A stretch of DNA of 64,000 nucleotides from a virus (IMGVR_UViG_3300037312_000927); one strand, 5' to 3'. Positions 1 to 18,192 are shown, numbered from the stretch's first letter. Numbers and translations are program-made. Notes: generated by a model from the letters alone, not told the origin.

Positions 1-61
1 CGACGATTTTACCCAGAGTTCCCCCGAATCCCGAGATTTTTTCGAGATATCGATTTTCCAT
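1..61 (-). CDS. 5' end of another NxYLEKI(A/S)-family protein (runs off the window)
   Basis: Minus strand from ATG at 61 reads MENRYLEKISGFGGTLGKIV; same leader as 7441-8118 and 17749-18192; directly follows the stop of 63-656. Not in the ORF track. Confidence 0.8.
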   Translation of the reverse strand, partial: MENRYLEKISGFGGTLGKIV

Positions 62-62
62 A

Positions 63-656
63 TTAACTAAACAGGAATTCTGTCAGAGGATCGGTTTTCG
101 GTCTAGCCATTCCAGAAGCACTACCCATGCTCCAAGGTTCATCCATTGCACTAGCAATCTTGCTCAGGAGGCCTTGGTCAACCTTTTGCAGTTCAGCTAA
201 ATCTTCATTGGTAAAGGCACCGACACTAGCAGCTTTAGCGATAGGCTCCGGTAGTTCGATTTCATTGATAGATCTAGCTTGCGCAGCTTTTTCCATCTGT
301 GCAGTCATTTCTTCTTTTAGGTGCTCGACTTCAGCTTCCAAAGCTTCGATATAATGGGCAGCCTTAGTCAGGAGATCAACACTGGGGTGAGCCTCTTCAA
401 CTTCAGGAGCGTAGGTTACTAGGTCTTTTAGGTTTACGCCGGCGGCCTTAACCATGGATACAGCTTGTTCAACATCGACGCCTGCTTGGACCATAGCTTC
501 CGTAGCAGCTTTTTCCATGAGGTGTTGGTCGACCATCGCACGTGCTTCGATTTCATTGTATCCAGCTTGTTTCAGATGCTCAACGGCGCCTTCAGTCGGA
601 GAGCTAAGACGAATATCTTCAGCTGCTTGTAATAGAACTTGTGATAGTTGTGACAT
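63..656 (-). CDS. Putative internal head/scaffold-like protein, K-x-A rich
   Basis: 197 aa, helical; LKQAG, MEKAAT, MVKAAG, LSKIAS; degenerate AGVDVEQAVSMVK module shared with neighbours. Confidence 0.6.
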   Translation of the reverse strand: MSQLSQVLLQAAEDIRLSSPTEGAVEHLKQAGYNEIEARAMVDQHLMEKAATEAMVQAGVDVEQAVSMVKAAGVNLKDLVTYAPEVEEAHPSVDLLTKAAHYIEALEAEVEHLKEEMTAQMEKAAQARSINEIELPEPIAKAASVGAFTNEDLAELQKVDQGLLSKIASAMDEPWSMGSASGMARPKTDPLTEFLFS

Positions 657-665
657 TATTATTCC

Positions 666-1661
666 TTATTTCTTTTTCTGAGTATTAATAACGTTAGCAA
701 GTCTGCCGTCGTTAATCTGATTTCTAATTGATTTTAGGCGACCATCATAGTTGCCTTTAACTGCACCTATAGCACCCCCTACTGCTACACCGCCAAGAGC
801 CCCGACCATAGCTCCTCCATCAGCACCTAGGTTAGGATTACTAAAGAACTTATGGACTCCCTTAGGATCGTGTTGAGCTATTACGTTTAGGAGCTGGCCA
901 GGCTTAACTCTCTGAGCGCCAGGCTTACTTGCGTTATATGCGAAAGCTGCGGCCTGGGCACCTTTATTAGCAATGAATCTACCTACACGTTCATTACCTA
1001 ATTTCTTACCAATCAGCTTACCTGCGTAAGCCCCTAAGGTTCCTGCGGCCAATCCGTATCCAGTCCCCTTAGCCAGGGCGGTAGAGGTAGCACGGGTTTC
1101 TTCGTTAAATGCACCTTTAAGGTCTCTGCCTGCAGCACCATGAGCAACGTATCTAGCTGCAGATGAAGTAGCTCCGGGCAAGAACGTAGAGGCGTAATCG
1201 GCAGCAGTATTTATCTTGGCAAGCCGAGTATCTTTAATACCCTTGATTTTATATTCCTGGACATTGCTGGCAATTTTTTCTAAGTATTTATTACCATCTT
1301 CAGCCTTCTTTTCAAGGGCCTTGTTTATTTTAATGGCAGCATAGTCCCCTAGAAGACTTACTCCTCCGCCGATAGCACCAACTTTAAGTCCCCGTTTGAA
1401 GCCGGAACTTCTAACAGTTTTTCCAATAGTGGATACTGGATTTTTAAGGAAGCCACCTAGTCTCTCTGCAATAGGCACTGCAGGTGCTTTTAGGGGACGT
1501 GCTCCGTTCAGACCAATCTTAGTTTGAATATGGTCTGATATAAGATTCGATCCTACCCCTACCGCACCGATAACTCCGGTATCACGCAGTTCTTTCTTGG
1601 TATCTTCTGCTTCCTTAACCATACTAATGTTGTGTTGTAGTTGTGTCAAATATTTATTCAT
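666..1661 (-). CDS. Putative virion internal/ejection protein with glycine-zipper helices
   Basis: 331 aa; MNKYL at the N-terminus and internal GNKYLEKIAS; several GxxxG hydrophobic segments. Confidence 0.6.
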   Translation of the reverse strand: MNKYLTQLQHNISMVKEAEDTKKELRDTGVIGAVGVGSNLISDHIQTKIGLNGARPLKAPAVPIAERLGGFLKNPVSTIGKTVRSSGFKRGLKVGAIGGGVSLLGDYAAIKINKALEKKAEDGNKYLEKIASNVQEYKIKGIKDTRLAKINTAADYASTFLPGATSSAARYVAHGAAGRDLKGAFNEETRATSTALAKGTGYGLAAGTLGAYAGKLIGKKLGNERVGRFIANKGAQAAAFAYNASKPGAQRVKPGQLLNVIAQHDPKGVHKFFSNPNLGADGGAMVGALGGVAVGGAIGAVKGNYDGRLKSIRNQINDGRLANVINTQKKK

Positions 1662-1681
1662 AAGTGTTCAGTGTGGTTAAG

Positions 1682-1704
1682 AAAACAGAGGGGCGAACCC
1701 CTCT
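1682..1704 (-). terminator. Rho-independent terminator
   Basis: AGAGGGG-cgaa-CCCCTCT stem; followed by GTTTT on the minus strand. Confidence 0.6.
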
Positions 1705-1717
1705 ATCTTTAATGATT

Positions 1718-2527
1718 TTAATCGCCGTACAGTTCCTGGGCTTTGGAATCTACAAGATCAACTGCAGTATCAAAGTCAATACCCTTATCGACCAGTGAAT
1801 TAACCGCTGCCTGCTTCTCTTGATGAATGGCATCATGAATTCTTTTAGCTTTGGCGATCTCTTCCGCTTCATCTTTTGCACGGGTTTTTTGACCGTATTT
1901 ATGAGCTCCGTAGATGCCTGCGACAGAAGCTAGTGCCGCTACGCCCGGATGTACTCTGTGCTGCAACATTTGACCGTTGATCACGTCACCAACCAGTCCG
2001 ATACCCGCCCCACCCCAACGGTGATCTTTACCCCCGGCAACTGCTCCACCGATAGTGCCCCAGAGTGCTACTTTCTCCATTACCAAATCAGCGGCGGTTT
2101 CAAAGTCCACACCTTGATCGATCAACATATTGACAGCGTGTGCTGCCTTTTCTTGATATTTCTTTTCCATTGCTTTTCCTTGCCTATGATATGAATGCAG
2201 TTTACCGGCCTCGTGCCCGATTAGGTAGGAACCTAGCCCTGTGCCAATGGCAAATTTGTGAGCCCTAGTTATGTTCGTGGCTCCATGATTCAACGCTCTC
2301 TGAGCTAGGGCCTTAGCGCCTTTAAAGCCCAACGCCCCCGCTGCAATTCCGGTGACAGCACCTTCTGCATGTGCCTTGAGAGAAGAGCCGATATCCCTCC
2401 CAACATCACCCCAGAATGTATCTTTAGGCCCACGTTGTCCATGTTTTTTAGCTATCTTACGCTCTACCTCGGAGGCACCTTCCGACCATATTTTGAAGGC
2501 ATGTGTAGCTTTCTTTTCTATTGTCAT
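1718..2527 (-). CDS. Putative virion internal protein with glycine zippers and two G(V/I)DF modules
   Basis: 269 aa; AVNMLIDQGVDFETAADLV and AVNSLVDKGIDFDTAVDLV; GxxxG segments; K-x-A motifs. Confidence 0.6.
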   Translation of the reverse strand: MTIEKKATHAFKIWSEGASEVERKIAKKHGQRGPKDTFWGDVGRDIGSSLKAHAEGAVTGIAAGALGFKGAKALAQRALNHGATNITRAHKFAIGTGLGSYLIGHEAGKLHSYHRQGKAMEKKYQEKAAHAVNMLIDQGVDFETAADLVMEKVALWGTIGGAVAGGKDHRWGGAGIGLVGDVINGQMLQHRVHPGVAALASVAGIYGAHKYGQKTRAKDEAEEIAKAKRIHDAIHQEKQAAVNSLVDKGIDFDTAVDLVDSKAQELYGD

Positions 2528-2544
2528 TATAATTCCTAACGTAC

Positions 2545-2574
2545 AAAAAAATAAAGCCTTTATTTCTAAAGGCT
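2545..2574 (-). terminator. Rho-independent terminator after 2618-3643
   Basis: AGCCTTTA/TAAAGGCT stem followed by a T-run on the minus strand. Confidence 0.65.
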
Positions 2575-2617
2575 CTATTTCATAGTCTATATCACCTTAA
2601 AAGGTTGACTAGTTAAA

Positions 2618-3643
2618 TTACATTTGTGAGACGTAGGCTACGGCTTCATCGAAGTCAATACCGTTTTCGATCAGGGCATCCAGAGCAGCTTTCTTCTCTT
2701 GACCTTTCTTATAGGCATAACCTGCGGCACCGGCAGTACCAGCAGCAGCGGCACCGATCGCTACTTTTTTACCCATGCTCATACCTTTTTTACCTGCAAC
2801 AGCAGCGGCACGTCCGCCAACTGAAGTCAGGGCACCTGCTTGCTTAACCATGGCAACAGCTAGGTCGAAATCAACGCCTTGGTCCAGCAGTTCGTTGAAA
2901 GCAGCTTGCTTGATCTGAGCTTCTTCTTCAGCTTCGATCTCTGCGCTAGCAGCTTTAACCATGTCGATAGCAGTGTCGAAATCGATACCGCTGTTAACCA
3001 GGGCAACTGCAGCAGCCATTTTCTCTTGGCTTTCGTCAACTTGGACTTGAGCCGGAGCTTGGTTATTGATAGCGCCTTCAGCCGAAGTCGAAGGGGTTTG
3101 GGCGATGGTAGCAGCATTAGTGCGAGCTTGTGCATCAGCGACGATTGCATCAAAGATCTCATTGATAGTACCGCCATTACCTTTACCGTCAGTACCCGGA
3201 GTAGGCTGGAACGAGTTGTTATGCTCGGCTACTTGTTGAGCCAAGTCAACTTGAGTCTTGTTAGGAACAACACCAGCCGGGATGCCGTTCTCAGTAATGA
3301 CGTCGCCAACACCAGCCAGCTTAGTCAGAAGTGCTTGTGCCAGAGCTTTACCGGCGTCAGATGCTTGTTTGTTCATTCCTGTATCCTTGTTAGTTTGTTC
3401 GATTTTAGTTGATGCTACTTTTTCCATGATTTCTTTGGCGAGGTCCGATCCAGTTTTGAAAGATGCCGACTTTTCTTGTTCGCCTTCTTTCTTTTCCTTC
3501 TCTTCTTTTTTATCTTCTTTCTTGTCCTCGTCCTTCTTACCTTCGTCGTCGTCTTTCTTCTTAGCCTTATCTTCATCAGATTCCGGCACGAAGCCCGCCT
3601 GCTTTTCCAGGTCGGCTACCAGACTTTCGAGTGTCAGTCCCAT
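2618..3643 (-). CDS. Putative major core/scaffold head protein
   Basis: 341 aa, immediately downstream of the protease; K/D/E tract, about ten K-x-A motifs, three G(I/V)DFD modules; own terminator. Confidence 0.55.
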   Translation of the reverse strand: MGLTLESLVADLEKQAGFVPESDEDKAKKKDDDEGKKDEDKKEDKKEEKEKKEGEQEKSASFKTGSDLAKEIMEKVASTKIEQTNKDTGMNKQASDAGKALAQALLTKLAGVGDVITENGIPAGVVPNKTQVDLAQQVAEHNNSFQPTPGTDGKGNGGTINEIFDAIVADAQARTNAATIAQTPSTSAEGAINNQAPAQVQVDESQEKMAAAVALVNSGIDFDTAIDMVKAASAEIEAEEEAQIKQAAFNELLDQGVDFDLAVAMVKQAGALTSVGGRAAAVAGKKGMSMGKKVAIGAAAAGTAGAAGYAYKKGQEKKAALDALIENGIDFDEAVAYVSQM

Positions 3644-3713
3644 TGCATATCCTTTATTTTATTAAATTTTAGGCAAAGTAAATTTTACCTAGGTCCAAAT
3701 TCGTTGTCAAATC

Positions 3714-5204
3714 CTATTTCTGAGTAATCACTCTAGCCATGTCAGCCTGTGCCAGTTTATAGGACACCTTTAGATCTGAGGCAGATTTAACTAAATGTAT
3801 TTTAGCATCATAAGTACGAGTTGGCTCTACCTGTTTCATTTTTTGTTCAAGTGCACGGGTAATATACCATTTAGCAGCCAGAGCTGAAGCACCTATAGCC
3901 ATAATGATTTGAAGAGTTTTATATAAACCTTGCTTACCTGTCTCTTCAGGAAGATTTTTTTCACGGAATAACTCATAAGCCGTAGGTTCAATCTTAGGGC
4001 CGTTCCCTACATACCCGACATTAGTTGCTTCCATGTATGCCCTCTTCTCTACGTACTCTGGAAGAAGACTACTAGTAGACACATAGGGCATTAAAAGATG
4101 AGCGATGGTATGAGAGGAATCCCCTTCTACAGCTTCATCACTAGGCAATTCTAAATGGCCAGCACCTACATGGGATACTGTATTTGCAGCGAGAACACCA
4201 ATTCCTCTAGCCATTTCACCTAAGGTTTTTCTACCTATGAGTTCTGCCAGGAAGGTAATACTGGGACTGATGCCTAGATCCGCAAGAGTATTGTAAATTT
4301 CCGTCAGCTTAAAGTTAACCAAAATATCAATCAACTTGTGATCAGGATCACTTACTTTGGCCAGTAAAGGTTCCAAGGAATTAGAAACATCGAGTACAAC
4401 GCCGCCTTCAATCTCCTTAATGAATTCAGATAGCTTTTGAATAGCCGCTTCTTTAACTACGCCTTCTTCCAGTAATCCTTCAGCAGCAGCACTATCAGCA
4501 GAACCTATGATAGGGTCTACGGAAAATCCTTGTTGAGATGCTACTTTTTGAAGTACAGAACTTGTAACGTCTGCGGGACGAACCACGATAGACATATCGA
4601 AGAACTTTAAGGGAGCAATGTTGAGAGCTGCTACTTTACGCCCATCAGGGTAAACCTTTCCCAGCTCATTGTTTAAGTGGCTACAATACTCTTGACGAGT
4701 ATGCGCTTCGTTACCACAAATAGAACAGACGTCATATGGGGTTTTACAAGCCATCGAAGTTGCAGGAAAATCTCCACGTTCGATACGTTCTACAACGTCT
4801 GGGGCTTTGTCTTTCTCGATATAAGCAACCACCTCTACACGATGCATACGGTGATTATAAATCGAGAAGATGACTTTGCCAATAGCAATGGCCGGATCCT
4901 TATTTACGTGGTTGCGGAAAATATGAGCCGGGCTAGTTTCAAAGGTTTTATGGCACTCGATAAGGTTAGATTCGGGGAAATAGTCTGCGTTCCTATTGGC
5001 ACCGTAGTATTCCCCGGCACCCATTGCCAGTATGTGTACGAAGATCTTGTCAGGCTCTGGAGTAATCTTTGAGATGAACTCTTGGACTCTGGAATCCGCC
5101 GCCTGCTTAACTAGACCCTTAGTATTTCCAATATCCAAAATTGAGATTGTAGCCTCGTCCGGGCTAAAAAAAGAACTAGAGTCCACTAATTTTATCAGTG
5201 ACAT
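3714..5204 (-). CDS. Putative prohead (capsid maturation) protease with Zn-finger insertion
   Basis: 496 aa; HIF-x-NH, SMACK, CSICGN...YCSHL, FFDMSIVVRPAD pattern typical of phage prohead proteases; located in the head module. Confidence 0.6.
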   Translation of the reverse strand: MSLIKLVDSSSFFSPDEATISILDIGNTKGLVKQAADSRVQEFISKITPEPDKIFVHILAMGAGEYYGANRNADYFPESNLIECHKTFETSPAHIFRNHVNKDPAIAIGKVIFSIYNHRMHRVEVVAYIEKDKAPDVVERIERGDFPATSMACKTPYDVCSICGNEAHTRQEYCSHLNNELGKVYPDGRKVAALNIAPLKFFDMSIVVRPADVTSSVLQKVASQQGFSVDPIIGSADSAAAEGLLEEGVVKEAAIQKLSEFIKEIEGGVVLDVSNSLEPLLAKVSDPDHKLIDILVNFKLTEIYNTLADLGISPSITFLAELIGRKTLGEMARGIGVLAANTVSHVGAGHLELPSDEAVEGDSSHTIAHLLMPYVSTSSLLPEYVEKRAYMEATNVGYVGNGPKIEPTAYELFREKNLPEETGKQGLYKTLQIIMAIGASALAAKWYITRALEQKMKQVEPTRTYDAKIHLVKSASDLKVSYKLAQADMARVITQK

Positions 5205-5207: not shown

Positions 5208-5684
5208 TTATCCTAAATCATTTGCAGGGATAACTGCGGCATTTCTAAGGTTTCTATTGATGGATTGCAATGTTTTAAGGCTACGTTCTTCCAATGATGA
5301 ATGATGTTTCTTAAGTACTCTGTCATCATAAACGTTTTTAAGTTTACCAGCACCAATCAGCATACCTCCACCGATACCTAGCTGTGTAAGAGGCTCTGCT
5401 TCTTTAACATTTTTAAGTAGACGTGTGCCCCAGGATTTAACTGAGGACATACTTGCTATCTTTTCTAAATAAACATTACTCGCCAATTTGGATATCCCTC
5501 CCCCACTACCTACACCGGTGTTACCCTGGCCGTTATCTTTATCTTCAGTTTGGTTGTACTGATACTGACTATTAAGATTACCGGTTACGTATCTATTATC
5601 AGGGATTTCTGTAGCGTAGGCCCCCTGAGGAGACCTACTATCAGCGGCCCTGATCTTTGTAAATATATCTTCTTTTTTAATCAT
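5208..5684 (-). CDS. NxYLEKIA-family virion protein
   Basis: 158 aa; SNVYLEKIASM, Gly-rich hydrophobic segment. Confidence 0.6.
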   Translation of the reverse strand: MIKKEDIFTKIRAADSRSPQGAYATEIPDNRYVTGNLNSQYQYNQTEDKDNGQGNTGVGSGGGISKLASNVYLEKIASMSSVKSWGTRLLKNVKEAEPLTQLGIGGGMLIGAGKLKNVYDDRVLKKHHSSLEERSLKTLQSINRNLRNAAVIPANDLG

Positions 5685-6283: not shown

Positions 6284-7366
6284 TTAAATATTGGGTTCAC
6301 GTTGAAGTGAAGTCCACACATCTTTACTCCTGCCGGTCGTCTTATCTACGCCAGGACTGTACATAACTGCATCTCCTGCTACGGCAGCTGCACCCATTGC
6401 GGCGGTGCCTAAAGTTAGGCTACGGGCCGGGAGCTTTGCTGGGATAGGTTTAGGGGCCTCTCCTGCCATGTTTCTGAAAACGTTACCCATCTGGGTAGTT
6501 TTTCTCTGTGCAAAGTTAGTAGCGTTATTCACAGTAGGAGCGCCGATTTTACCTACAGCTTTGGCAGCCATAGCAGCAGTGCTACCAATAACTCGTCCGA
6601 TGCCGGATCCAATTGCACCGATGAATGCTTCTTTCAGAAGTTCAGCCTTTTTATCAAGGGCTTCACGGGATTTAATTTCCGCTACCAGAGCCTCGGCTTG
6701 TTTCAGCATTCCTACCAGAGTTTTAGCCTCCTTAAGATCAGCTTCCTTGAAAATTCCGTCATCGGTATATTTCTGAGGAACACCATAAACTAATGCTGTC
6801 ACTTTGTCAAATTCAGTGCCGTTAGTTACAGTAGCCAGTTTCTCAAGACCTTGAGAATCCTTACGGAAATCACTAGCTGCTTTTAGCAGTTCAGGTCCGA
6901 GATGCATCTCTCTGTCCTTCAGTTCACCAAGCTCTCTCTTATTTTGAGCAGCCATTTTGATGAAGTAGACTTGTTTCTCTGCGTCGTTAAGTTCTGGTTC
7001 TGAAGAGGTTTCGGAAGCTGCCTTCTCAAGGGCTACTTCTTTACCACGTACGAAACCGAAAATATCAGTTCCAGGAGTTTCAACTGAGGCCGACTTAGTG
7101 ATAGTATCAGGGATCGACAGAGTTTCCATAACCTCTGCGTACTTGCAAAGAGGGAACTCCACCGTTCTGTCATCAGCCAGACTTAGAACTTTCAGGTACG
7201 CAATCGAGTTAGTGGCTTCGACAGCTCTGTGGATTTGTTCCGAGTTTAGATTTAGATCACTAGCGTACTTAGCCAAACCGTCACTTAATGGAACTTTGCC
7301 ATTAAGAAAGTTTTCTACAGTCTTAATGGAAATATCTCTAATTTGATCTGAGGTTATGAATGGCAT
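6284..7366 (-). CDS. Hypothetical head protein, K-x-A rich
   Basis: 360 aa; about nine K-x-A motifs; C-terminal Gly/Ala-rich hydrophobic helices. Confidence 0.6.
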   Translation of the reverse strand: MPFITSDQIRDISIKTVENFLNGKVPLSDGLAKYASDLNLNSEQIHRAVEATNSIAYLKVLSLADDRTVEFPLCKYAEVMETLSIPDTITKSASVETPGTDIFGFVRGKEVALEKAASETSSEPELNDAEKQVYFIKMAAQNKRELGELKDREMHLGPELLKAASDFRKDSQGLEKLATVTNGTEFDKVTALVYGVPQKYTDDGIFKEADLKEAKTLVGMLKQAEALVAEIKSREALDKKAELLKEAFIGAIGSGIGRVIGSTAAMAAKAVGKIGAPTVNNATNFAQRKTTQMGNVFRNMAGEAPKPIPAKLPARSLTLGTAAMGAAAVAGDAVMYSPGVDKTTGRSKDVWTSLQREPNI

Positions 7367-7440: not shown

Positions 7441-8118
7441 TCAGAGGGGGTAATCGTCTTTTAGTTTTGAATGAGCTCGACTTAATGCATGTGCAAGTAA
7501 CGCTCCTCCACCTACTAACATTGCAGCACCTTTGCCAGCCCTGGTCCTGCCTGCGGAATTACCGTAGTAACTTTCTAAGTGGCGTTTCTTAAGAAATGCA
7601 AATGCCCCTTTGCTACCTTTACCCCCTGCTACGAATTGAGGTTTGATATCGTGGGTAGTAGTAGCGGCGGTATCCTTAGATCCGAACGCTCCTGCAACGT
7701 CGTCGTCCCTCTTGAAGCTCTTCCACATTTTATCGCTGACCCGTGCCTTGACCATACCTGGTTGGGTATTTCGTCTAGCAGCTTGGAATCCAGCGAATTG
7801 TCCAGCTACAAATGGGTTTTTAGTAACGTGAATCTTACCCTTACTTCTCTCTGTGAACACTTCCTTGGACGTCTTCGAGGGATGAGCACTACTTGCCCCG
7901 TGCGCCCCTCCACCGTGCTTAGTTTTAAAGCCCTCCTTACGGATAGCCTCGGCATTAGCCTTGCTGGTCCCATGATAGACCGTGTGATATCCCAGGAGTC
8001 TTTGAGGAGCCCCCTTTGCTAACCCGGCACCTACAGCTCCTTCAATGGCCATATTGCCGTATTTGTCGTCGCCTGTAGCGGCGGCGATCTTTTCTAAATA
8101 TTTATTCATCTTTGTCAT
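7441..8118 (-). CDS. NKYLEKIA-leader protein with an ADP-ribosyltransferase-like (His-type) domain
   Basis: MNKYLEKIAA (likely start 8109); YHGT-x5-AIRKEGF, GKIHVT-x5-A-x2-FA, GMVKARV, DIKPQFV match the ART/Tpt1-like fold pattern; flanked by Gly-rich hydrophobic helices. Confidence 0.6.
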   Translation of the reverse strand: MTKMNKYLEKIAAATGDDKYGNMAIEGAVGAGLAKGAPQRLLGYHTVYHGTSKANAEAIRKEGFKTKHGGGAHGASSAHPSKTSKEVFTERSKGKIHVTKNPFVAGQFAGFQAARRNTQPGMVKARVSDKMWKSFKRDDDVAGAFGSKDTAATTTHDIKPQFVAGGKGSKGAFAFLKKRHLESYYGNSAGRTRAGKGAAMLVGGGALLAHALSRAHSKLKDDYPL

Positions 8119-8842
8119 TCTCAGAAAACATGTCGTCCAAGCTCATGGTACTTAGCGACGGCAACTCATCGGACGCTTCTAAGTTTGTACCCTTGTTCAT
8201 TTTTTCGATATCTTCTTCCAAAGTATCAAGTCCGGTGAATGAAGGGTTAACACTACGAAGTGCGATCTCGATATCGTGTTTTGCTGCAGCAGAGTCCAGA
8301 ATCCACACTTTCAACAGGCGTGCGAGGTCCATAGCAAGTTTGATGTATTTTGTACTCTCTTTACTTGCTTCGGTAGCATTGCCATTGAACATGGCTTCTT
8401 TACTTTTATATATGCAGGTAGTAAACAGATCTTGGAGTCCTTCGACGGGACTGATATCGACCTGATTACCAATACGCCAAGAGATGAAATTAAGGCCCTG
8501 ACTCAAGGACCACATCTTCAAAGTTCTCTCAGCAGGGTCGGAAACATTCATCAGATCCATTTTAGACAAGCGGTCCAGATCTGTGACGTTATAATAGACG
8601 TCCCTATACATGGTAACCACCTCTACCGGAATTTCCAGTAGGGTGGCTATCTTGTCTAGTTCTTTTGATGCCAGAAGAGACGATTCTAGGTATTGTCTCT
8701 TCAGCGTATGGTTGAAGATTTTTTGAGCTTTGGCGAAAATTACTGCCTCTGCACTGTCATCACTGGCTAATATTTTATCGACCAGGTCATCAGCGCCGAG
8801 AGTTTTCTTTCGTATTAAGATGGCTCTGGCGTTTACAGTCAT
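8102..8842 (-). CDS. Hypothetical protein
   Basis: 246 aa ORF tightly packed in the operon. Confidence 0.7.
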   Translation of the reverse strand: MTVNARAILIRKKTLGADDLVDKILASDDSAEAVIFAKAQKIFNHTLKRQYLESSLLASKELDKIATLLEIPVEVVTMYRDVYYNVTDLDRLSKMDLMNVSDPAERTLKMWSLSQGLNFISWRIGNQVDISPVEGLQDLFTTCIYKSKEAMFNGNATEASKESTKYIKLAMDLARLLKVWILDSAAAKHDIEIALRSVNPSFTGLDTLEEDIEKMNKGTNLEASDELPSLSTMSLDDMFSENDKDE

Positions 8843-8845: not shown

Positions 8846-10720
8846 TTAGTTCTTCTCGTTAGGTCTCAGTGCTAATAGTTCCTGCAGCTTAACTACGTTG
8901 TCGCCAAGCATGCGATAAACAGATTTCAGGTTTGCCAGGAATCCAAAGACCGAATCGGTGTCGTTGTTTTCACTCAGCTGATTGATATGTACACGGCTCA
9001 GGAATAGAATTCTACCAAGTTTATCAATGCACTCTTCGATATCCGGAATGTATTCCTGGATCAAATCAAACATGTTAGGCGCCTGTAGCAGTTCCGAAAT
9101 AATCGTCGCTTCAGTAACCTGTGCATCGCTAAGAGCTAGACTTTTCTGAACACTAGGAATAAACGATCCGTTAAGTCCTAGTTTTCCTTGAGGCTGAGGT
9201 TTTTCACCGAACTCGGCAATCTGACCAGCTTCAAAACGTTGACCCGCCTGTTTACTAAGGTAGATCGTCGTTACTTTTTTCTCTTTAGCCTGCTTGATAA
9301 AACTTTTAGCCAGAGTAGGATCAATGCTTTCTTCTACAACGAGACGTTGCATTGCCGCTTTTTCTTGACCTAAAATTTCGCCGTTAGCAGAGAATTCTAC
9401 ACCATCGAATGAAAGTTTTAAAGTGTCTCCAAGCAATTCTTTTTGACTGATGCAGTGCTTGATACTGGCAGCATTAGCGGTAACCTCAATATCTGAACTC
9501 AGATTTGCACCCAGTTTAATAACCAGAGATGAATACGGAATATAGATATCACGGCCTTCTTTTTGAGGAGCCATACCGTAGTTACGATATGCGTGAATTT
9601 TAACAACCCCGGCCATAGGGCCAGCAATTACGCTTACGTCCATCTCTACGCCAAGGTGATTCATCATCACTTTACGTGCAGTGAACACTCCTAGTAGTTC
9701 TGCGCTACCGTTGATGATAGCAAAGGTATCATCAATCGTCACATCCCGGGGCAACACTGGAGGGTTATATTCAAAGATAGTATTCAGAACTTCTTTTCTA
9801 GCCAGTTTATCGCCTTTGACGACAAACTTATTTGAAACTGCATAATCACCGCTGGTGAAAATAGCTACTGAACCTGCTGAAGATCCCAGGCTTTGACCGA
9901 TGTCCATCAGCCTAGGGACAAATGCTTCTTTAGTAGATGCATTTTGCATTACCACTTCGTAATCACTATCACCATCAACATCACTGATGGTCGTGAATTT
10001 ACCATCGTTTTGATCTTCTAGGGTAACTGCGACCCTATTAATATCAGGTGCACCTCTGACTGAGTATCCGTTTTCAAGGATGGCTTTGATCTCAACCGGG
10101 GTCAGACCCTCATCCTTAATAGTGATGATTTGTACCGGTGCAAGGTTACCGACGGTCGAGGCCGGGCTCTTTACTGCACGAGATTTCAGAGCTGCAAATA
10201 AGTCCTTGATAGAGAACATCTTATGAAGATTCTCATAGACCGTTTTCTCTTCCGAGATTTTTTCCAGGGTGAAGTCTTTGAGATAATCAGGCATAGATGC
10301 CATGAAATCACCAAGTCTGCTTGTGGAAGCGGAAACGAATTTACCGGTTCTAGGGGGATTAATTAGCTGACTTACATCAGGGTTCAGGTTAGCAGAGGTC
10401 GGGATTTTCTTACCTCTACCTTGGTCCATTTGACTGGAGCTTACGATCGTAGCAATAGTCTTCTTAGTGATGGGGAAGAACTTCTGTCTTGAAGCAAAGA
10501 AGATGCTATCGATTGGATATACGTTATCCATTTTCGATACGACTGGTACATAGAATACCTCCGCTCCCGATTTAAGAATGAATACGCCGACCTTCATATC
10601 GGATTCTTCCTGGAGATCATCAGTGATGTCTTTGAAACTCAGGATCAATCCACCCAGTTCAGGGCTAGTAGCCAGGAACTTTGAAAGTGCGATGTCATTA
10701 AAATCTTGATTTTGGTCCAC
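8846..10720 (-). CDS. Large hypothetical virion protein
   Basis: 624 aa in the head module; FIKQAK and LSKQAG motifs; SD-like AAGGA upstream of the GTG start. Confidence 0.6.
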   Translation of the reverse strand: MDQNQDFNDIALSKFLATSPELGGLILSFKDITDDLQEESDMKVGVFILKSGAEVFYVPVVSKMDNVYPIDSIFFASRQKFFPITKKTIATIVSSSQMDQGRGKKIPTSANLNPDVSQLINPPRTGKFVSASTSRLGDFMASMPDYLKDFTLEKISEEKTVYENLHKMFSIKDLFAALKSRAVKSPASTVGNLAPVQIITIKDEGLTPVEIKAILENGYSVRGAPDINRVAVTLEDQNDGKFTTISDVDGDSDYEVVMQNASTKEAFVPRLMDIGQSLGSSAGSVAIFTSGDYAVSNKFVVKGDKLARKEVLNTIFEYNPPVLPRDVTIDDTFAIINGSAELLGVFTARKVMMNHLGVEMDVSVIAGPMAGVVKIHAYRNYGMAPQKEGRDIYIPYSSLVIKLGANLSSDIEVTANAASIKHCISQKELLGDTLKLSFDGVEFSANGEILGQEKAAMQRLVVEESIDPTLAKSFIKQAKEKKVTTIYLSKQAGQRFEAGQIAEFGEKPQPQGKLGLNGSFIPSVQKSLALSDAQVTEATIISELLQAPNMFDLIQEYIPDIEECIDKLGRILFLSRVHINQLSENNDTDSVFGFLANLKSVYRMLGDNVVKLQELLALRPNEKN

Positions 10721-10791: not shown

Positions 10792-11589
10792 TCAGCATCC
10801 TACTGGACCTCTATTATCCCCACTAGCTTTAGTCGTAGTAGGTCCACTTACTAGGTTTCCACTGTTATTTCCGGGCATAGCAGCACCCGGTCCATTCGCT
10901 ACTCTATACGAATCTCCATACAGAATTGAAGTCGCATATGCTTGAGGTGTTGAGTTGAACTTATCCATACCTTTACCGAGGTATAGTCCGAATGTAGCCA
11001 TAGTTCGGTTCGAATAAGGCTTAGCTCCGGTAGGCGGATTGCTGACGTAACCCGGTGCTATTTTATATTTATCTTCAAGGATTATAAGTCCCGCTAATAT
11101 CTGGTTAGTTATATTATCAGGACCTAATACCGTATTAATATCAACACCAGGCTCAACTATCAGATCACCCGCCAAATCTGCCCTCATGCGTAAAAGCTCG
11201 CTAGTCCCGTTAGAGTTGGCCCCTTTTATAAGGTACCAGCCAGTGGCCTGCATGAGTCCAAAGCCTGCTACGGAGTTTCTAAGATTAACACGCTCTTGCT
11301 GAGTAGTAGCAGGATTTCTCATTTTCGCTGCTATACTTGGAAATCCTAGGAATTTCTTCAGTTGGGCCTCTCCGTGTATGCCTGAGTTAGCGTTAGGATT
11401 GAACGCACTTTCTTTATAAATACAAGCCATTACTAACTTTGTTATATCCTGTATTGTACCCAAAGTCGATGAAAAATGTTTTTTTATAAGTTCATCAACT
11501 TCAGATCTAATGGCCTGGGCAGAGGAATAAGACTTTGAAATAGCACTAGGTTTACTATTAGATTTTGCTAGCCCTACAGTGGTTGACAT
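10792..11589 (-). CDS. Lytic transglycosylase (SLT/lysozyme-like)
   Basis: ACIYKESAFNPNA (catalytic Glu-Ser) and GFGLMQ motifs. Confidence 0.8.
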   Translation of the reverse strand: MSTTVGLAKSNSKPSAISKSYSSAQAIRSEVDELIKKHFSSTLGTIQDITKLVMACIYKESAFNPNANSGIHGEAQLKKFLGFPSIAAKMRNPATTQQERVNLRNSVAGFGLMQATGWYLIKGANSNGTSELLRMRADLAGDLIVEPGVDINTVLGPDNITNQILAGLIILEDKYKIAPGYVSNPPTGAKPYSNRTMATFGLYLGKGMDKFNSTPQAYATSILYGDSYRVANGPGAAMPGNNSGNLVSGPTTTKASGDNRGPVGC

Positions 11590-13415
11590 TAGTATTTCCC
11601 GTCTGCGCCTTCACCAAACTCTGTGCCCATAATATATGGAGCAATAGGGTCCGTGGAATGAATAGGACTTTCTTCGTGAAAAGATGCGGCTTGAGTAATT
11701 GTATCTTTCAACTTTGCAAAACTTAACTTACTGATCCAATTTTTATCCAGTAACTTAGCAGTCTGTAAACCTGGGACAATAGGAGTAACTCTCAACCTTG
11801 TCGGGCTCACAAAGATCTTAGTGATACCATGATCGGTTAGCTCTTTTACGTGATTAGAGTCTAAGAGCGTGCCCGGGGTCAAATTAAGGATTGGCTTAGC
11901 AAGTATCTTACCTGCACCATCCTCAGTGGAAATTTCACCCTCGGTATGTTGTAGGTATTTTGCAATAGCATTGATCTCTACTTTATCGCCCGGAAGAAAT
12001 GGACTTTCACCCGGATCTGTTACCTGTACATACCGGATCAAATTCTTAGCAATGATCTCAAAGTGACGTGGATCTAAGCCACCGCCGTAAATATTACGAA
12101 GCTCATCTGCCAAATAACGTCTACCTGCACCCATCCCACGAAGAGCTACGAGTTTACGAGGATTAATAACGCCATCGCTCAGTCTATCCCCTTGTAAAAC
12201 ATTGTCGCCTTCTTTGATAACCAGAGGCTGAGAGATGGGTACGAAGTGTTTAATACCATTGACATAGACGTTACTATCACCGAGGCTGGTTGTTTCGATT
12301 TTGTTAACCTTACCGTTCAAGGTAGAAATTGTCGCCTCGTCCTGGAAGTTTTCAGTAGGATTATTCAGAAGATTACTAGCTTGTTGATAGGCGTTACCTC
12401 TACGTTCTCCGACCGTTGCCTTGTGCTTAGTACCAAGCATAGCCTGAGTAAGGACTTCTGACACAGATTGTGCAGCGATAACTCCAACGTTCTCTCCGGT
12501 CTCTGGCATCTTACCATTACCCATCAGTCCATGGCACTTTTTACAGATACCATCTGGCGCTTCACAAGTCATAGAACTACGAACTTTGACTTCTTTTTTG
12601 CCGCTCTGTACAAGTTCATTCAGATAGGCTTCGTCAATGAGTTTATTGGTACGAGCTTCAAATCTACCAAGAACGGCTTTTTTATCGTCTGTTCTCTGGA
12701 TGATACCGTTGCGGGTACCACAGTCATCGATGGTGATAACTTCATGAAAGACGGTAGGAGAAATACGCTTGAATAGGGCTCCAGGAAGGGCTGTGGAGAG
12801 CTGAGACAGCACGGTGCTACCCCTACCCATGTATGACAGCGCAAGAGCCTCAGCGGGGCTCATACCTTCTGCAAACGAGTGTTTGATAACGATAGGGACC
12901 AGATTACCCGACATGTTCGCCGACATCAGTGGAGTAGAGGTTGCAGTACCTAGCTGGGCCGGGTTACCACGGGCGCCAGTTTGAGCCATACGAGCTGCCA
13001 TAGATCCCTTTGGAACAAGGTATTCAAGGTTTTGTTTCTCGATGATTTTGTTGTACTTACCAGTAAGTTCTGCCAAAGCCGAGTTCAGTTGGGTCTTGTT
13101 TTTGATCTTAGACTTGAGATCAGTGACTTTGTAGTCGTATTCCTTAATAATGGCTTGTCTTTCATCACTATCATTGATGTAATCGCTTAGGGGTGTAGAT
13201 GCACCAATCTCATACGCTTTGGTAAAGAACGTCTTTCCAAGATCATTGATAGTTTCGTGGGCTTTATCCCCACCCTTACTCAGCAGCATGTTAACAAGTT
13301 TAGACATACCAGGTTTGTCTAGCACTTGATGAACGTCATATGCTTTTTTCGCTTCTTCAGTAGGCATGGAGTGCTTCAACAGCAGGCTTCCAGCGGTTGT
13401 ATAGTTAGTAGTCAT
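11589..13415 (-). CDS. rpoC: RNA polymerase beta' subunit, C-terminal part
   Basis: Bridge-helix-like FAEGMSPAEAL...STALPGALFKRI; Zn ligands DDCGT, RSSMTC, ICKKCHG; trigger-loop region GENVGVIAAQSVSEVLTQAMLGTKH. Confidence 0.92.
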   Translation of the reverse strand: MTTNYTTAGSLLLKHSMPTEEAKKAYDVHQVLDKPGMSKLVNMLLSKGGDKAHETINDLGKTFFTKAYEIGASTPLSDYINDSDERQAIIKEYDYKVTDLKSKIKNKTQLNSALAELTGKYNKIIEKQNLEYLVPKGSMAARMAQTGARGNPAQLGTATSTPLMSANMSGNLVPIVIKHSFAEGMSPAEALALSYMGRGSTVLSQLSTALPGALFKRISPTVFHEVITIDDCGTRNGIIQRTDDKKAVLGRFEARTNKLIDEAYLNELVQSGKKEVKVRSSMTCEAPDGICKKCHGLMGNGKMPETGENVGVIAAQSVSEVLTQAMLGTKHKATVGERRGNAYQQASNLLNNPTENFQDEATISTLNGKVNKIETTSLGDSNVYVNGIKHFVPISQPLVIKEGDNVLQGDRLSDGVINPRKLVALRGMGAGRRYLADELRNIYGGGLDPRHFEIIAKNLIRYVQVTDPGESPFLPGDKVEINAIAKYLQHTEGEISTEDGAGKILAKPILNLTPGTLLDSNHVKELTDHGITKIFVSPTRLRVTPIVPGLQTAKLLDKNWISKLSFAKLKDTITQAASFHEESPIHSTDPIAPYIMGTEFGEGADGKY

Positions 13416-14880: not shown

Positions 14881-14898
14881 TTCATTAATCCTCCCATT

Positions 14899-14909
14899 TT
14901 TGGTAAAAG
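14899..14909 (+). promoter_or_regulatory. Class B promoter variant TTTGGTAAAAG
   Basis: One mismatch to the consensus; upstream of 14960. Confidence 0.5.
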
Positions 14910-14959
14910 ATATATGTAGAGCATTATTTTTTTATCAACCTATTTAGAAAGGTAGAAAT

Positions 14960-16213
14960 ATGATCAATCAAAGCGCTGCTCTTGCACACTTCACCGCTAG
15001 TACCGGATTTGTAACTGCCAATATCGGGCGCCAACGGTACATCGAGTCTGCTGAAAACATCCGTGCAAACCTGTCCCGTCGGTCCGGAATCCATACTAAA
15101 TATACTCAAACCGTTATGCCAATTCCAGATGGCAACATGAAACCATCTATCGATATTCTGGTTAAACGTGAAGCTTGGCCTACCGAGTGGATGAACCAAA
15201 TAGGACGTAAAGGTCTAATGACTGAACAATATTCAAAACTCCCCGATGCTGATGTGTACTCTTTCAGATGGATGGACCATGTGGTGAATATGCATCTCGT
15301 TGACGAACTTGAAGCTGCAGGGTTTTACTATAGATATCATGGTATCAGCGAAATTATCAATGAGATTATCAAACCCTTGGATTTCTCTTTTGGTGAGGGA
15401 GGTCTTTCTTTGAATATCGAAGGCTTTGGCCCCAAGCTCTTGAGTTCCAATCCGTCGGTTATCGGGGCAATGATAGGGCTGGACCTCAGCTCGTATTATC
15501 ACGGAGTTAATAATAAGAGGGATATCTGGATTATCCTTGCCCGCATGTCCGTGTACAATAAGAGTACGTTTGCAGCGATTGCGGCAGCTTCTCCTATCTC
15601 TGCTACAGAAAGGCCTCTCCTAGCAGAGTTCGCAGCATATTCAGCGGCATCATCTGATATGATTATGTTCGACCCCAATAAGTACAATGGCCATAATTGG
15701 GCTAATAACTTCCGTAGCCAGTTCCCAGAAATTGTCGGGAAGATTGTTTCGATCAAGGAATCTACCGATTTCAAGAATCTTGTGAAAACGAAGTTTAACG
15801 AAACGATTGTATCCGAAATCACAGGCCTTTCAGGTGAGAACCTTAATCAACTCATGAAGACCTACGTAGATAGCTTCAAGAGTGAAAATGAGTTTAATAC
15901 CTATGTTTTGTCCAGTCTCCCGGACACGGTCAAGACTTCTCTCCTCGATCTTAAGACAAAGCTTTACCCGGACGGGATCCCCACCCCAGCATCAGAACAG
16001 GTAGAACAGGATCCTGTGAAGGAAGAGAAAGCTAAAAGAGTTCGTAAGACTAAGAAGGCCGCAGGAGAAAAGGTGAAGAAGGTTGTAGAAGAGCGGCCTA
16101 AGAAAACCCTTCCGAAGAAAAAGGCTGCTCAAGCCGTAGAAGAAGCGATGGATATTTTGACCCCCATCCCCGCTTCTGACTGGCCTTATCCAGGTCATGC
16201 ACGTCCAGCTTAA
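14960..16213 (+). CDS. Degenerate Pol-beta-type nucleotidyltransferase-like protein
   Basis: IDILV, YSFRW..VVNMHLV, F(S)FGEGGL, FNETIVSEITGLSGENL resemble a phage nucleotidyltransferase family, but the catalytic G-D-x-D and third Asp appear lost; Lys-rich C-terminal tail. Confidence 0.45.
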   Translation: MINQSAALAHFTASTGFVTANIGRQRYIESAENIRANLSRRSGIHTKYTQTVMPIPDGNMKPSIDILVKREAWPTEWMNQIGRKGLMTEQYSKLPDADVYSFRWMDHVVNMHLVDELEAAGFYYRYHGISEIINEIIKPLDFSFGEGGLSLNIEGFGPKLLSSNPSVIGAMIGLDLSSYYHGVNNKRDIWIILARMSVYNKSTFAAIAAASPISATERPLLAEFAAYSAASSDMIMFDPNKYNGHNWANNFRSQFPEIVGKIVSIKESTDFKNLVKTKFNETIVSEITGLSGENLNQLMKTYVDSFKSENEFNTYVLSSLPDTVKTSLLDLKTKLYPDGIPTPASEQVEQDPVKEEKAKRVRKTKKAAGEKVKKVVEERPKKTLPKKKAAQAVEEAMDILTPIPASDWPYPGHARPA

Positions 16214-16233
16214 TCTCCGTTCGTAAGAACGTT

Positions 16234-16261
16234 AAAAACAGGGCTTAACCCCTGTTTTTTA
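16234..16261 (+). terminator. Rho-independent terminator
   Basis: AAAAACAGGG-cttaac-CCCTGTTTTT. Confidence 0.75.
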
Positions 16262-16284
16262 GCTTAATGTGGTAAAATATATTC

Positions 16285-17544
16285 ATGCCAACACTATCAC
16301 ATAACCAAGAAGTACTACTAACTCGTCAAAGACACGAGGCCGAAAGAATGGGCCTACACTTCGATTATCGAATCGTTGTAGGTGACAAAGCTTTTTCATG
16401 GGCAACTAAAAAGGATATGCCGGGCGTTGGCTCGTCTATCATTCTATGGGAACAGCCTGTGCATGATAGTGCATACGCATTGAGTAAAAAAGTCATCATT
16501 CCTACTGGTCAATACGGCGCCGGAGTTACTACTTTGGATTGGGTTAGAAAAGGCACGGTTAACAATCCTGGAGAGGACCCGGAGAAATTCACATTAACCA
16601 CTAAACGTGGAGAACGATATCTCTTCAAGAAGCTTCCTACCAAGTACGGCGAAAAAGCGTGGTTGTTTAAAAATCTAGGATCCATTCAAAACGAATTTCT
16701 AGATAAAACCGCCAGCCTTATAGGAGGAGCTTTAGGTACTCACATAGCTCAAAACATTGCTACCAAAGCTGCTCTGGGGCATAAGGGGATTAGTAGATAT
16801 CTTGCTAACTCGTTCTCGGAAGGCGTCCATGGGGTAGTAAATACCAGTCTAGGTTCTAGGGCTAAAAAATTCCTATCAGGAGCAATTTTACCGGACATTG
16901 CAGTAGCCCACAGGAAAGCCCATGATTTTGGACGTGCTATGAACCCAGTTATATCGATGGCAGACAAGCGGCAAAAGGTTGGGTTACGTATGCTAAGTGA
17001 AGGTAGGATTGAGGACCTTAAAAAGCACAAACTACACCTAGATCCCATCATTCAAAAAGCCCACGGAATAGCTAAGGAACATATGGAAGACTTACCGGCC
17101 CTAGACTCGGTCTTGGATAAAGGTAAATCCATTCAAAAGATATTCAACGATAAAGCTCATCCTCTAGCATCCAATATTTTGAAGAATATTAGTAGGGGTA
17201 ATAAACCGGTAGGTCCTCAGTTTAGACTGGCAGCCCCACGATCTACTCTACCTGTAGTTGGATCATTATCAAGTACCCTAATAGATCCCTCGGGTGGTGT
17301 CATTAACTCTGCCAAGACTTTGATGTCTAGTAAGACTTTTAGTAGCACTAGACTTGGTAAAAAGATAAATGATTCCCTGGAAAAACATCTTGTAGTTAAG
17401 CCTATTAAATCAGGCTTATCAGGAGGAGCGCCTGTTACTAAAAAAGATAAGCTTAAACACACCGCAGCTGAAGTCTTGGTGAATCCGGTGTCTGCAAACC
17501 TAAAAAGAACATCGGCTGCTATCACCGATGCTCTTAAGACCTAA
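16285..17544 (+). CDS. LigD-type DNA 3'-phosphoesterase domain fused to a virion-protein-like domain
   Basis: RQRH-x6-LHFDYR...SWA...PVH-x3-Y...GQYGAG matches the LigD PE motif (H,H,D,R,H,Y); followed by NEFLDKTASL and glycine-rich helices. Confidence 0.8.
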   Translation: MPTLSHNQEVLLTRQRHEAERMGLHFDYRIVVGDKAFSWATKKDMPGVGSSIILWEQPVHDSAYALSKKVIIPTGQYGAGVTTLDWVRKGTVNNPGEDPEKFTLTTKRGERYLFKKLPTKYGEKAWLFKNLGSIQNEFLDKTASLIGGALGTHIAQNIATKAALGHKGISRYLANSFSEGVHGVVNTSLGSRAKKFLSGAILPDIAVAHRKAHDFGRAMNPVISMADKRQKVGLRMLSEGRIEDLKKHKLHLDPIIQKAHGIAKEHMEDLPALDSVLDKGKSIQKIFNDKAHPLASNILKNISRGNKPVGPQFRLAAPRSTLPVVGSLSSTLIDPSGGVINSAKTLMSSKTFSSTRLGKKINDSLEKHLVVKPIKSGLSGGAPVTKKDKLKHTAAEVLVNPVSANLKRTSAAITDALKT

Positions 17545-17684
17545 TTCTTTTTATCCCCGAATCTTACGGTAGTGACTTTAATTGCTAGCGCCGCCACTAA
17601 TGTACAGAACACTATCGGATGCTCTTCGAAGTACACGAATATAGGATTTGTGTAATAACTCAGATAGAATAGTGCAGTATCCAT
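17541..17684 (-). CDS. Small membrane protein (47 aa), not in the ORF track
   Basis: MDTALFYLSYYTNPIFVYFEEHPIVFCTLVAALAIKVTTVRFGDKKN; SD AAGGAG and a class B promoter upstream; stop overlaps the stop of 16285-17544. Confidence 0.75.
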   Translation of the reverse strand: MDTALFYLSYYTNPIFVYFEEHPIVFCTLVAALAIKVTTVRFGDKKN

Positions 17685-17712
17685 TATAAACTCCTTTATA
17701 TATGGTGTATAT

Positions 17713-17723
17713 CTTATACCAAA
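17713..17723 (-). promoter_or_regulatory. Class B promoter TTTGGTATAAG (minus strand)
   Basis: CTTATACCAAA on the plus strand; about 30 nt upstream of the 17684 ATG. Confidence 0.7.
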
Positions 17724-17748
17724 ATTGGGGTATCTAACTTAGAATAAT

Positions 17749-18192
17749 ATGAATAAATATTTAGAAAAAATTGCAAATTGGCATGAAGTAGAACCTGGGC
17801 TACACTATGACTACTCTAGTGGACGTTACCATATATCTCAAGATAAAGAAAACTCCATTAACTCTACTCTAGATAAACGACACGTTACTGCAGGGGCAAA
17901 AGTTTTTGGAGGACTGGGCGCTGTAGGGTTAGGTGGACTAGGGTTAGCAGTAGGGGAACGATCTATATTCGGTGCTCCTAGAAACCTATCTCATAGGTTA
18001 TCACGTGGACTACGAGGAGCAATTATAGGTGGTGGATTGGGAGCTGCGACTGGAGCCTTATTAGCCCAAGGCGGTAATAACCAGGTCCATGCAAGTGGTA
18101 GAACTTTAGAACGCAGGTTACATAGTGAAATTGCCTCAAGAGCAGGAGATTATAGAAGAACTACGGCATATCAAATGCTTAATGGTGATTAA
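17749..18192 (+). CDS. NKYLEKIA-leader protein with glycine-zipper hairpin
   Basis: MNKYLEKIAN; GLGAVGLGGLGLAVG and GAIIGGGLGAATGALLA. Confidence 0.7.
   Translation: MNKYLEKIANWHEVEPGLHYDYSSGRYHISQDKENSINSTLDKRHVTAGAKVFGGLGAVGLGGLGLAVGERSIFGAPRNLSHRLSRGLRGAIIGGGLGAATGALLAQGGNNQVHASGRTLERRLHSEIASRAGDYRRTTAYQMLNGD

Follow-up and report, generated by a model that had tools for sequence, protein, structure and literature searches.

A short peptide of the form N-x-Y-L-E-K-I-A recurs on otherwise unrelated proteins encoded in a 64,000-nucleotide stretch of viral DNA (IMGVR_UViG_3300037312_000927; the whole stretch is called the window here), and we cautiously favour the interpretation that it serves Arash-like phages as a tag for capsid loading and cleavage, much as the capsid-targeting sequence (CTS) does in phage T4 but with a cut of alanine type rather than glutamate type. 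An initial annotation of the window had proposed a portable capsid-targeting and cleavage tag, and that proposal is partly supported: the tag is portable, is under selection at the level of the peptide, lies in the head module, contains a K-x-A core and is carried by three cargo families that have orthologues in the Arash virion. Loading, cleavage and injection of the tagged proteins would follow by analogy, and the tag is not of the glutamate type found in T4 and phiKZ.

Judging by its gene order and nearest relatives, the window is from a large uncultured phage of the Arash-like lineage, whose tag-bearing members probably infect Gammaproteobacteria, as Arash and the D69 group do. The closest cultured relatives of its prohead protease are found in Salmonella phage Arash (44% identity) and Vibrio phages D69, D181 and D148 (47%). 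Its gene order is that of Arash gp216-gp226, running from the C-terminal part of RNA polymerase beta' (11589-13415) through a transglycosylase-like gene, the gene of a 624-residue virion protein, gp219-, gp220- and gp221-like genes, the protease, a scaffold-like protein and a gp225-like gene to the capsid protein. The capsid protein gene lies just left of the window start, in a region that we read through a relative, L002, that is 86% identical. Genome-wide placement was assessed in three complete IMG/VR relatives with terminal repeats, G001 (181 kb), G002 (193 kb) and G003 (170 kb), the first of which shares the window's gene order and is about 55% identical to it in protein sequence.

All six copies of the tag reported in the initial annotation are present (Table 1). 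A position matrix built from the tag family gave six matches in the window at 16 bits or more, all inside 1-18 kb, and none in the reversed window sequence; at 10 bits it gave seven, against a mean of 0.8 (maximum 2) in codon-shuffled windows. Because the matches far exceed both kinds of control, the six copies are not due to chance. One of them, NEFLDKTAS, is degenerate, and its counterparts elsewhere mark it as a genuine tag: in three relatives the LigD-type phosphoesterase domain is followed by a conserved AWLFKN and then by a full NKYLEKI(A/S), and in Arash the counterpart of the C-terminal domain of 16285-17544 is a separate gene whose product begins, exactly at the tag point, with MEKQAS. 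The open reading frame (ORF) that is cut by the left end of the window has an orthologue of 310 residues in L002 with a second copy of the tag inside it, and the ORF originally delimited as 7441-8118 probably starts at the ATG at 8109, which overlaps the stop codon of the upstream gene. A further candidate, YLEKIQQV at the C-terminus of 28316-28612 (28331-28342, minus strand) beside the portal gene, is absent from the G001 orthologue and was taken as chance.

A codon scan found the exact codon pattern of N-K-Y-L-E-K-I-A on 93 IMG/VR stretches, 75 of which we place in the same lineage because each holds at least two other homologues of window or G001 proteins. The 17 stretches that lack this kinship are mostly chance matches (a 149-residue family on 4-5 kb contigs; a tape-measure-like protein), and two of them are short pieces of a contig that bears several copies of the tag. 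Among 165 distinct instances in the fetched loci, 127 follow Met or Met-x immediately, and the other 38 lie inside the protein or at its C-terminus. Synonymous codons are used freely at every position, with Leu drawn from all six, and this full mixing indicates that selection acts on the peptide. That the tagged proteins are otherwise unrelated, as the initial annotation had it, was borne out by at least 61 clusters, most without a known family and several of them enzymes (SNF2 helicase, LigD phosphoesterase, ATP-dependent ligase, GNAT, ART fold). The survey of the genome and its relatives for cargo domains that the annotation had recommended returned, from Pfam and PHROG, SNF2 helicase, LigD_N, Gly-zipper, GNAT, PARP/Tpt1-like and ligase domains. 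On complete genomes the tag matrix matched 10 (G001), 7 (G002) and 9 (G003) times, so that one short N-terminal peptide is common to unrelated proteins of a single phage at 7-10 copies per genome; it matched neither the Arash genome nor reversed control genomes. Searches of Arash for a recurrent leader of this kind by k-mers, gapped words and matrix scans found none, the short K-x-A core being all that the two have in common, and a literature search for YLEKIA returned nothing relevant.

Internal copies of the tag are, from the modules on either side of them, the joints of fused proteins. Through the tag, the phosphoesterase domain is coupled in the window to a gp100-like domain, in G001 to an SNF2 helicase (LigD_N at residues 13-81, tag near 160, helicase from 174) and in the metagenomic protein P0014 to an ADP-ribosyltransferase (ART) domain. 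Fusion and fission break exactly at the tag, and the module that follows the internal tag of 666-1661 exists in other phages as a stand-alone gene with an N-terminal tag. At 19 of 38 internal tags another K-x-A lies no more than nine residues upstream, as in ISKLAS-NVYLEKIAS. The tag can also end a protein, as in a phosphoesterase that closes with NKYLEKLSHYA; as cutting there would free just 3-11 residues and be nearly pointless, the peptide probably also binds something, beyond being cleaved. P0014 itself (379 residues) is a natural fusion of LigD phosphoesterase and ART fold whose joint reads NPYLQKVEEMKKEAS, and its C-terminus has a degenerate tag, SNKYLDKVKDNEHWE, like the start of the window's 17749-18192.

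The placement of the tag follows the head genes. Enrichment in the head module was one of the two points on which the initial annotation had staked its proposal, and in the three complete genomes tagged genes are confined to the head/virion module, with all strong matches within 17-23 kb of 170-193 kb. This region comprises the head module, from the 624-residue protein to the capsid protein, together with a phosphoesterase/ligase/helicase operon between two RNA polymerase genes. Tagged genes are found among the head genes in slots whose occupants vary; the slot between the gp219-like and gp220-like genes, for example, holds the ART-like gene in the window, a gene for a 54-residue basic protein in G001 and one for a 46-residue protein in L004. 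The sequence TAAAATA precedes 20 of 50 virion-module genes (40%) and 11 of 269 others (4%; p 5e-11), including genes in G001-G003 and those marked in Table 1. In G001 and G003 it is found ahead of the phosphoesterase operon too, and in the window it lies 12 nt upstream of the phosphoesterase gene, a placement that hints, weakly, at co-expression of this operon with the head genes.

The tag contains a shorter core, a hydrophobic residue followed by x-K-x-A-(S/A/G), which we searched as [LIMVFT]-x-K-x-A-[SAG]. Its density is 0.66-0.68 per 100 residues in head-module proteins and 0.04 elsewhere, a 16-fold difference; 25 sites lie in the head-module proteins of the window and 25 in those of G001, against 3.3 +/- 1.8 in shuffles. 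The sites are positionally conserved across six phages, including Arash and D69. They occur about 33 residues into the protease, directly behind its catalytic domain (SSVLQKVAS), near its C-terminus (LVKSAS), at the N-terminus of the capsid protein (KEAG then AAMSAFVRQ) and repeatedly in the gp220-, gp221-, gp223- and gp225-like proteins. Because the core is enriched and positionally conserved in head proteins and around the protease domain, we read it as the prohead protease's own cutting motif, in which we infer the exact scissile bond; GNKYLEKIASNV, SVLQKVASQQ and MTKEAGAAMS are candidate substrate peptides. In the capsid protein (L002 16935-17828, L105 9614-10507, Arash gp226 and D69) the first ~30 of 297 residues are almost invariant and hold a tag-like S-F-(L/I)-D-K-I-D and, after it, K-E-A-G|A-A-M-S, with the look of a short propeptide that could be cut off. 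Words of the type aromatic-L-(D/E)-K-I are rare in the proteomes of this lineage (~3 background matches per 58,000 residues). A separate feature of three head-module proteins (2618-3643, 1718-2527 and 63-656, minus strand) is a helical unit of ~25 residues, (Q-E-K-x-A-A)-x3-L-(I/V)-x2-G-(I/V)-D-F-(D/E)-x-A-(I/V)-x2-V, of UBA-like look, which occurs two or three times in each of them, with K-x-A sites on both sides of every copy, as if the copies were beads meant to be separated.

Sequence and synteny, its gene standing between those on the portal side and those of scaffold and capsid, identify the enzyme encoded by 3714-5204 as a prohead protease. It matches phrog_18299, 'head maturation protease', at 1.4e-10, and relatives found by tblastn, Rhodococcus phage E3 gp77 and Gordonia phage Stormageddon gp13, are annotated as prohead or capsid maturation proteases; Pfam and PDB sequence searches with it gave no match. 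Its alignment has invariant His and Ser residues. The protease of Bacillus phage G, gp19 (L132 5920-6822; 31% identical), keeps both core sites flanking the catalytic domain, with GLVKTAA at residue 43, ILEKVAS at 248 and LLKIAS at 274, and autoprocessing of alanine type may accordingly be old and widespread in this protease family. Residues ~153-176 of the window protease form an invariant C-x6-C-x2-C ... C-x-H cluster (C153, C160, C163, C174 and H176), also present in phage G gp19; this is possibly a zinc site, which would be unusual for a prohead protease.

Two of the tagged proteins carry enzymatic domains, as the initial annotation had noticed, namely LigD_N in 16285-17544 and an ART fold in 7441-8109. 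LigD_N (PF13298) is recognized at E 1.9e-6 and 28.4 bits, just below the cut-off of 31.1, which the G001 orthologue passes with 31.7 bits; four relatives match the family. The ART-like protein has 15 database homologues, all of which begin MNKYLEKIA. AlphaFold2 models it (pLDDT 80.6) with a confident ART-fold domain, in front of which the tag forms a separate helix of low confidence, and the top Foldseek matches in PDB are all of this fold (TreX/TreTu, Tpt1/KptA and the cholera and pertussis A subunits), with probabilities of 0.97-1.0 yet weak E values of 4e-3 to 1e-1. Relatives match PTS_2-RNA and PARP weakly in Pfam, and the family has an invariant first motif, H-G-(T/S). The glycine zippers that the annotation had described are likewise evident, with G-x3-G-x3-[GAS] runs in most of the ORFs it named and matches of relatives to Pfam Gly-zipper families.

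Evidence from virions comes from Arash, with the caveat that the list of proteins in its virion study runs to 116 (PMC10585845). Three of these, detected by mass spectrometry (MS), are orthologues of tagged cargo: gp96, of the ART-like protein (15 unique peptides); gp100, of the domain behind the weak tag (9 unique peptides); and gp217, of the tagged SNF2 helicases (38 unique peptides, 1148 spectra). The last is 42% identical to the G001 helicase across the whole of gp217, beginning right after the tag. Additionally, all eight Arash proteins with at least two core sites were detected by MS. The coverage column of this data set is uninterpretable, 100% coverage being listed for proteins with 2 unique peptides, and the supplement is an annotation table without peptide lists, so that this data set speaks neither for nor against cleavage.

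Under the reading that we favour, the tag would act as a short amphipathic helix that docks a protein onto the prohead core, whether on the scaffold-like protein, the protease or the inner face of the capsid protein, so that the protein would be enclosed once the shell forms. The prohead protease (3714-5204) would then cut at the core of hydrophobic-x-K-x-A plus a small residue, our guess being after Ala, as assemblin does at Y-L-Q-A|S/T. Cutting would strip N-terminal tags and split modules fused at internal ones, and the matured cargo would remain in the head and probably exit with the DNA. Cargo would be exchangeable; among it would be small proteins, either basic or of the glycine-zipper type, along with an ART-fold enzyme and a kit for DNA ends made up of 3'-phosphoesterase, ligase and SNF2 helicase.

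Several observations weigh against this reading. Arash gp96, gp100 and gp217 enter virions without the long tag, and because these orthologues are packaged untagged, the tag cannot be the sole route into the head and may not be what decides entry. Further virion proteins of this phage, such as RNA polymerase subunits and the 624-residue protein, also lack it. The residue that follows K-I-A at N-terminal tags varies (S, A, E, G, K, L), whereas general head sites have a preference for S/A/G. The protease may cut N-terminal tags inefficiently or leave them uncut. Internal core sites are not clearly avoided in tagged cargo (18 observed, 13 expected); the looser K-x-A-[SAG] falls somewhat short of expectation (33 against 49). 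An AlphaFold2 model of the protease from a five-sequence alignment (pLDDT 41) was too poor for inspection of the substrate groove. Finally, for the tag-bearing phages themselves we infer packaging, cleavage and ejection alike.

In one alternative, the tag is a cleavage site and nothing else, an optimal extended substrate that provides a cuttable joint and a removable cap, with other parts of each protein deciding its entry into the head. The tag does hold the K-x-A core, which abounds in head proteins and stands at both ends of the protease domain, its internal copies do sit at fusion joints, and the Arash orthologues do reach virions untagged. We nevertheless think this alternative unlikely. 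Its N, Y, E and I are conserved beyond what the general sites need; the removal of 9-11 residues from the 127 of 165 copies at the extreme N-terminus would be purposeless unless the peptide had acted first; C-terminal copies would free 3-11 residues; and it is hard to see how more than 60 unrelated small proteins would each have a head-binding determinant of their own. We rate as having little chance the idea that the tag is a remnant of a structural repeat, the first helix of the scaffold unit (K-x-A-A ... L-I-x-x-G-I-D-F-D) marking paralogous scaffold or inner-body proteins that co-polymerize. Tag-like words do stand at repeat starts (KKYQEKAAHAVNMLIDQG in 1718-2527 and TKQASFNYLIEDGYDFD in L004), and many tagged proteins are small, Gly-rich and adjoin the scaffold gene, but the sequences behind the tag are unrelated (61 clusters) and include globular enzymes, the tag occurs without the rest of the repeat, and it is conserved far better than the repeat is.

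The tag could also direct proteins somewhere other than the capsid: to the inner membrane or an assembly site, to a phage compartment, or into a chaperone or secretion route. Many tagged proteins have glycine-zipper, membrane-type helices, a ligase, helicase and phosphoesterase would be equally sensible at replicating DNA, and these phages have split multisubunit RNA polymerases like those of phiKZ. This reading, which we hold to be improbable although a little less so than the repeat remnant, has to contend with the confinement of tagged genes to the virion module, interleaved with head genes; with a core common to the tag and to sites in the capsid protein, scaffold-like protein and protease; with the virion orthologues of three cargo families; and with the length of the tag, eight residues being short for a membrane anchor. 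A nucleotide-level or accidental origin, as a translation-initiation region, a recombination box or a coincidence, might be suspected because most copies abut a start codon. The codon analysis refutes it, since synonymous codons are mixed and all six for Leu are used; internal and C-terminal copies occur, and the reversed and shuffled controls gave 0-2 matches, leaving this the least credible explanation by far.

If the tag does load the capsid, what it imitates may be the capsid protein itself. As the capsid N-terminal peptide holds a tag-like word that is otherwise rare in these proteomes, the tag may imitate an inward-facing propeptide. We offer, tentatively, a more specific version, in which the tag is a position-independent mimic of the propeptide S-F-L-D-K-I-D, conserved from the window phage to Arash and D69, and hitch-hikes on the scaffold-capsid interaction. 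The protease would cut after Ala, and the phage would inject with its genome a kit for healing and sealing DNA ends (3'-phosphoesterase, ATP-dependent ligase and SNF2 helicase), an ART-fold enzyme and a changing set of small proteins as a counter-defence of the first minute. To our knowledge, a specificity for cutting after Ala is so far undescribed for the prohead protease of a tailed phage.

The closest functional parallel is the CTS of T4, MKTYQEFIAE, which is borne by IPI, IPII and IPIII and removed by the prohead protease gp21 (Mullaney & Black 1996, as cited in PMC8442874). Like the tag, it is an N-terminal peptide of ~10 residues on unrelated, non-essential and variable proteins encoded near head genes, and includes a protease site (a presumed one in the tag); compared with MNKYLEKIA(S), it is identical at M1, Y4, E6, I8 and A9. 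Both lineages have small basic cargo, and an ADP-ribosyltransferase is among the head proteins of T4. The two differ in cleavage, the CTS being cut at (L/I)-x-E and the tag presumably at K-x-A plus a small residue: the tag and head sites read K-x-A-(S/A/G), with no conserved Glu at the presumed P1. They also differ in use, as the tag additionally serves as an internal joint and at C-termini, and in repertoire, which is far larger here and, as known from sequence, includes large enzymes (SNF2 helicase, ligase and LigD phosphoesterase). T4 belongs to a different lineage; the Arash-like one is marked by a virion multisubunit RNA polymerase and a 297-residue capsid protein. We suggest that the tag works like the CTS system yet is not a member of it, given its other lineage, non-Glu specificity and joint and C-terminal use.

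The initial annotation had likened the tag to the leaders of T4 and phiKZ, a likeness that does not extend to the cleavage sites, since K-x-A plus a small residue is nearer to the Ala-Ser sites of herpesvirus assemblin. The head proteases of phiKZ, 201phi2-1 and SPN3US, gp175 and gp245 among them, cut (S/A/G)-x-E or A-x-E (PMC10052503, PMC5694885). Phages of this group resemble the window lineage in being large, in their many internal head proteins and packaged multisubunit RNA polymerase, and in the multiple protease sites of their propeptides and the autoprocessing of the protease, but they cut after Glu and their propeptides are mostly long (111-254 residues), with no shared short tag. We know of no portable leader described for them. 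Assemblin, for its part, has a release site, Y-L-Q-A|S/T, and a maturation site, V-x-A|S (PMC4498786). As in the window protease, its catalytic domain is followed by an aromatic/hydrophobic-L-Q-(K-V)-A-S site (VLQKVAS here, ILEKVAS in phage G gp19) and then by a scaffold-like C-terminal part, and in both Ala is likely to be P1 and Ser, Ala or Gly P1'. The window sites differ in having Lys two residues before Ala, the proteases being likened here by sequence, and the herpesvirus sites are not used on accessory cargo.

Table 1. Tag copies, genes and promoter-like sequences of the window.
Coordinates	Strand	Feature	Remarks
32-55	-	Tag, MENRYLEKIS	N-terminus of the ORF beginning at 61 (1-61, first 20 codons), which continues past the left end
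1269-1292	-	Tag, GNKYLEKIAS	~residue 125 of ORF 666-1661
5454-5477	-	Tag, SNVYLEKIAS	~residue 72 of ORF 5208-5684
8083-8106	-	Tag, MNKYLEKIAA	N-terminus of ORF 7441-8109
16690-16713	+	Tag, NEFLDKTAS (weak, degenerate)	Within ORF 16285-17544
17752-17775	+	Tag, MNKYLEKIAN	N-terminus of ORF 17749-18192
63-656	-	Head-module protein	Arash gp225 orthologue; 3 core hydrophobic-x-K-x-A-(S/A/G) sites; two G(I/V)D-type helical repeats
666-1661	-	Glycine-zipper protein	Degenerate N-terminal MNKYL; full internal tag, half-copy NKALEKKA before it
1718-2527	-	Glycine-zipper protein with helical repeats	Weak tag-like site KKYQEKAA
2618-3643	-	Scaffold-like acidic/Lys-rich protein	Arash gp223 orthologue; 6 core K-x-A sites bounding repeated G-I-D-F-D helical units; TAAAATA upstream
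3714-5204	-	Prohead (head maturation) protease, C-terminal extension	K-x-A-(S/A) sites at ~residue 33, ~residue 222 and near the C-terminus
5208-5684	-	Small protein	Internal double site ISKLAS-NVYLEKIAS, then glycine-zipper helix
5699-6268	-	Head-module protein	Arash gp221 orthologue; 2 core sites
6284-7366	-	Head-module protein	Arash gp220 orthologue; 5 core sites, several positionally conserved; TAAAATA upstream
7441-8109	-	Tagged cargo	MNKYLEKIA, Gly-rich helix, ART-fold domain (YHGTS), C-terminal Gly-rich helix; Arash gp96 orthologue
8102-8842	-	Conserved head-module protein	Arash gp219 orthologue; gp219 undetected in Arash virions
8846-10720	-	624-residue conserved virion protein	Arash gp218 orthologue; TAAAATA upstream
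11589-13415	-	RNA polymerase, beta' C-terminal part	TAAAATA upstream
16285-17544	+	LigD-type 3'-phosphoesterase domain (residues 15-84), degenerate tag, gp100-like domain	
17749-18192	+	Tagged 147-residue glycine-zipper protein	Translationally coupled to the ligase gene
18192-19112	+	ATP-dependent DNA ligase, untagged	G001 orthologue of 453 residues begins MNKYLEKVA
23012-24184	-	RNA polymerase	TAAAATA upstream
24254-27667	-	RNA polymerase	
28612-30438		Portal orthologue	TAAAATA upstream
13468, 30516, 31112, 36852, 39095, 44179, 47435, 54705, 56522, 61842, 62690	+	TTTGGTATAA	Examples

Some neighbouring features of the module deserve mention. The gp219-like protein (8102-8842) is possibly an assembly factor, and a portal role for the 624-residue protein was rejected on finding the portal orthologue elsewhere. 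TAAAATA is a candidate late promoter, resembling that of T4, TATAAATA. Another sequence, TTTGGTATAA(G), has 14 exact copies in the window between 13468 and 62699, and 21 with one mismatch against 6.7 expected; nearly all are on the plus strand ahead of non-structural plus-strand genes, and it is likely to be an early or middle promoter. We rejected it as a promoter of head or tagged genes, which its copies do not precede. The virion module also contains the genes of a split multisubunit RNA polymerase. In Arash, the orthologues gp206 and gp216 rank by MS with the most plentiful proteins of the virion, and it is therefore very likely that this lineage, like the phiKZ-like phages, carries an RNA polymerase of its own in the particle.

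If the reading that we favour is true, searching sequences for a peptide of eight residues would be enough to name the proteins which an entire lineage carries in its heads and probably delivers with its DNA, yielding a catalogue of candidate host-takeover and anti-defence factors, most of them of unknown family. A packaged set of phosphoesterase, ligase and helicase would be a new kind of virion cargo, and the tag would provide a second, orthogonal means of loading foreign proteins into phage capsids. The principle of the T4 packaging tag would extend to an unrelated lineage with a different protease specificity, which would suggest that loading cargo with a tag and a protease is a general and repeatedly evolved solution.

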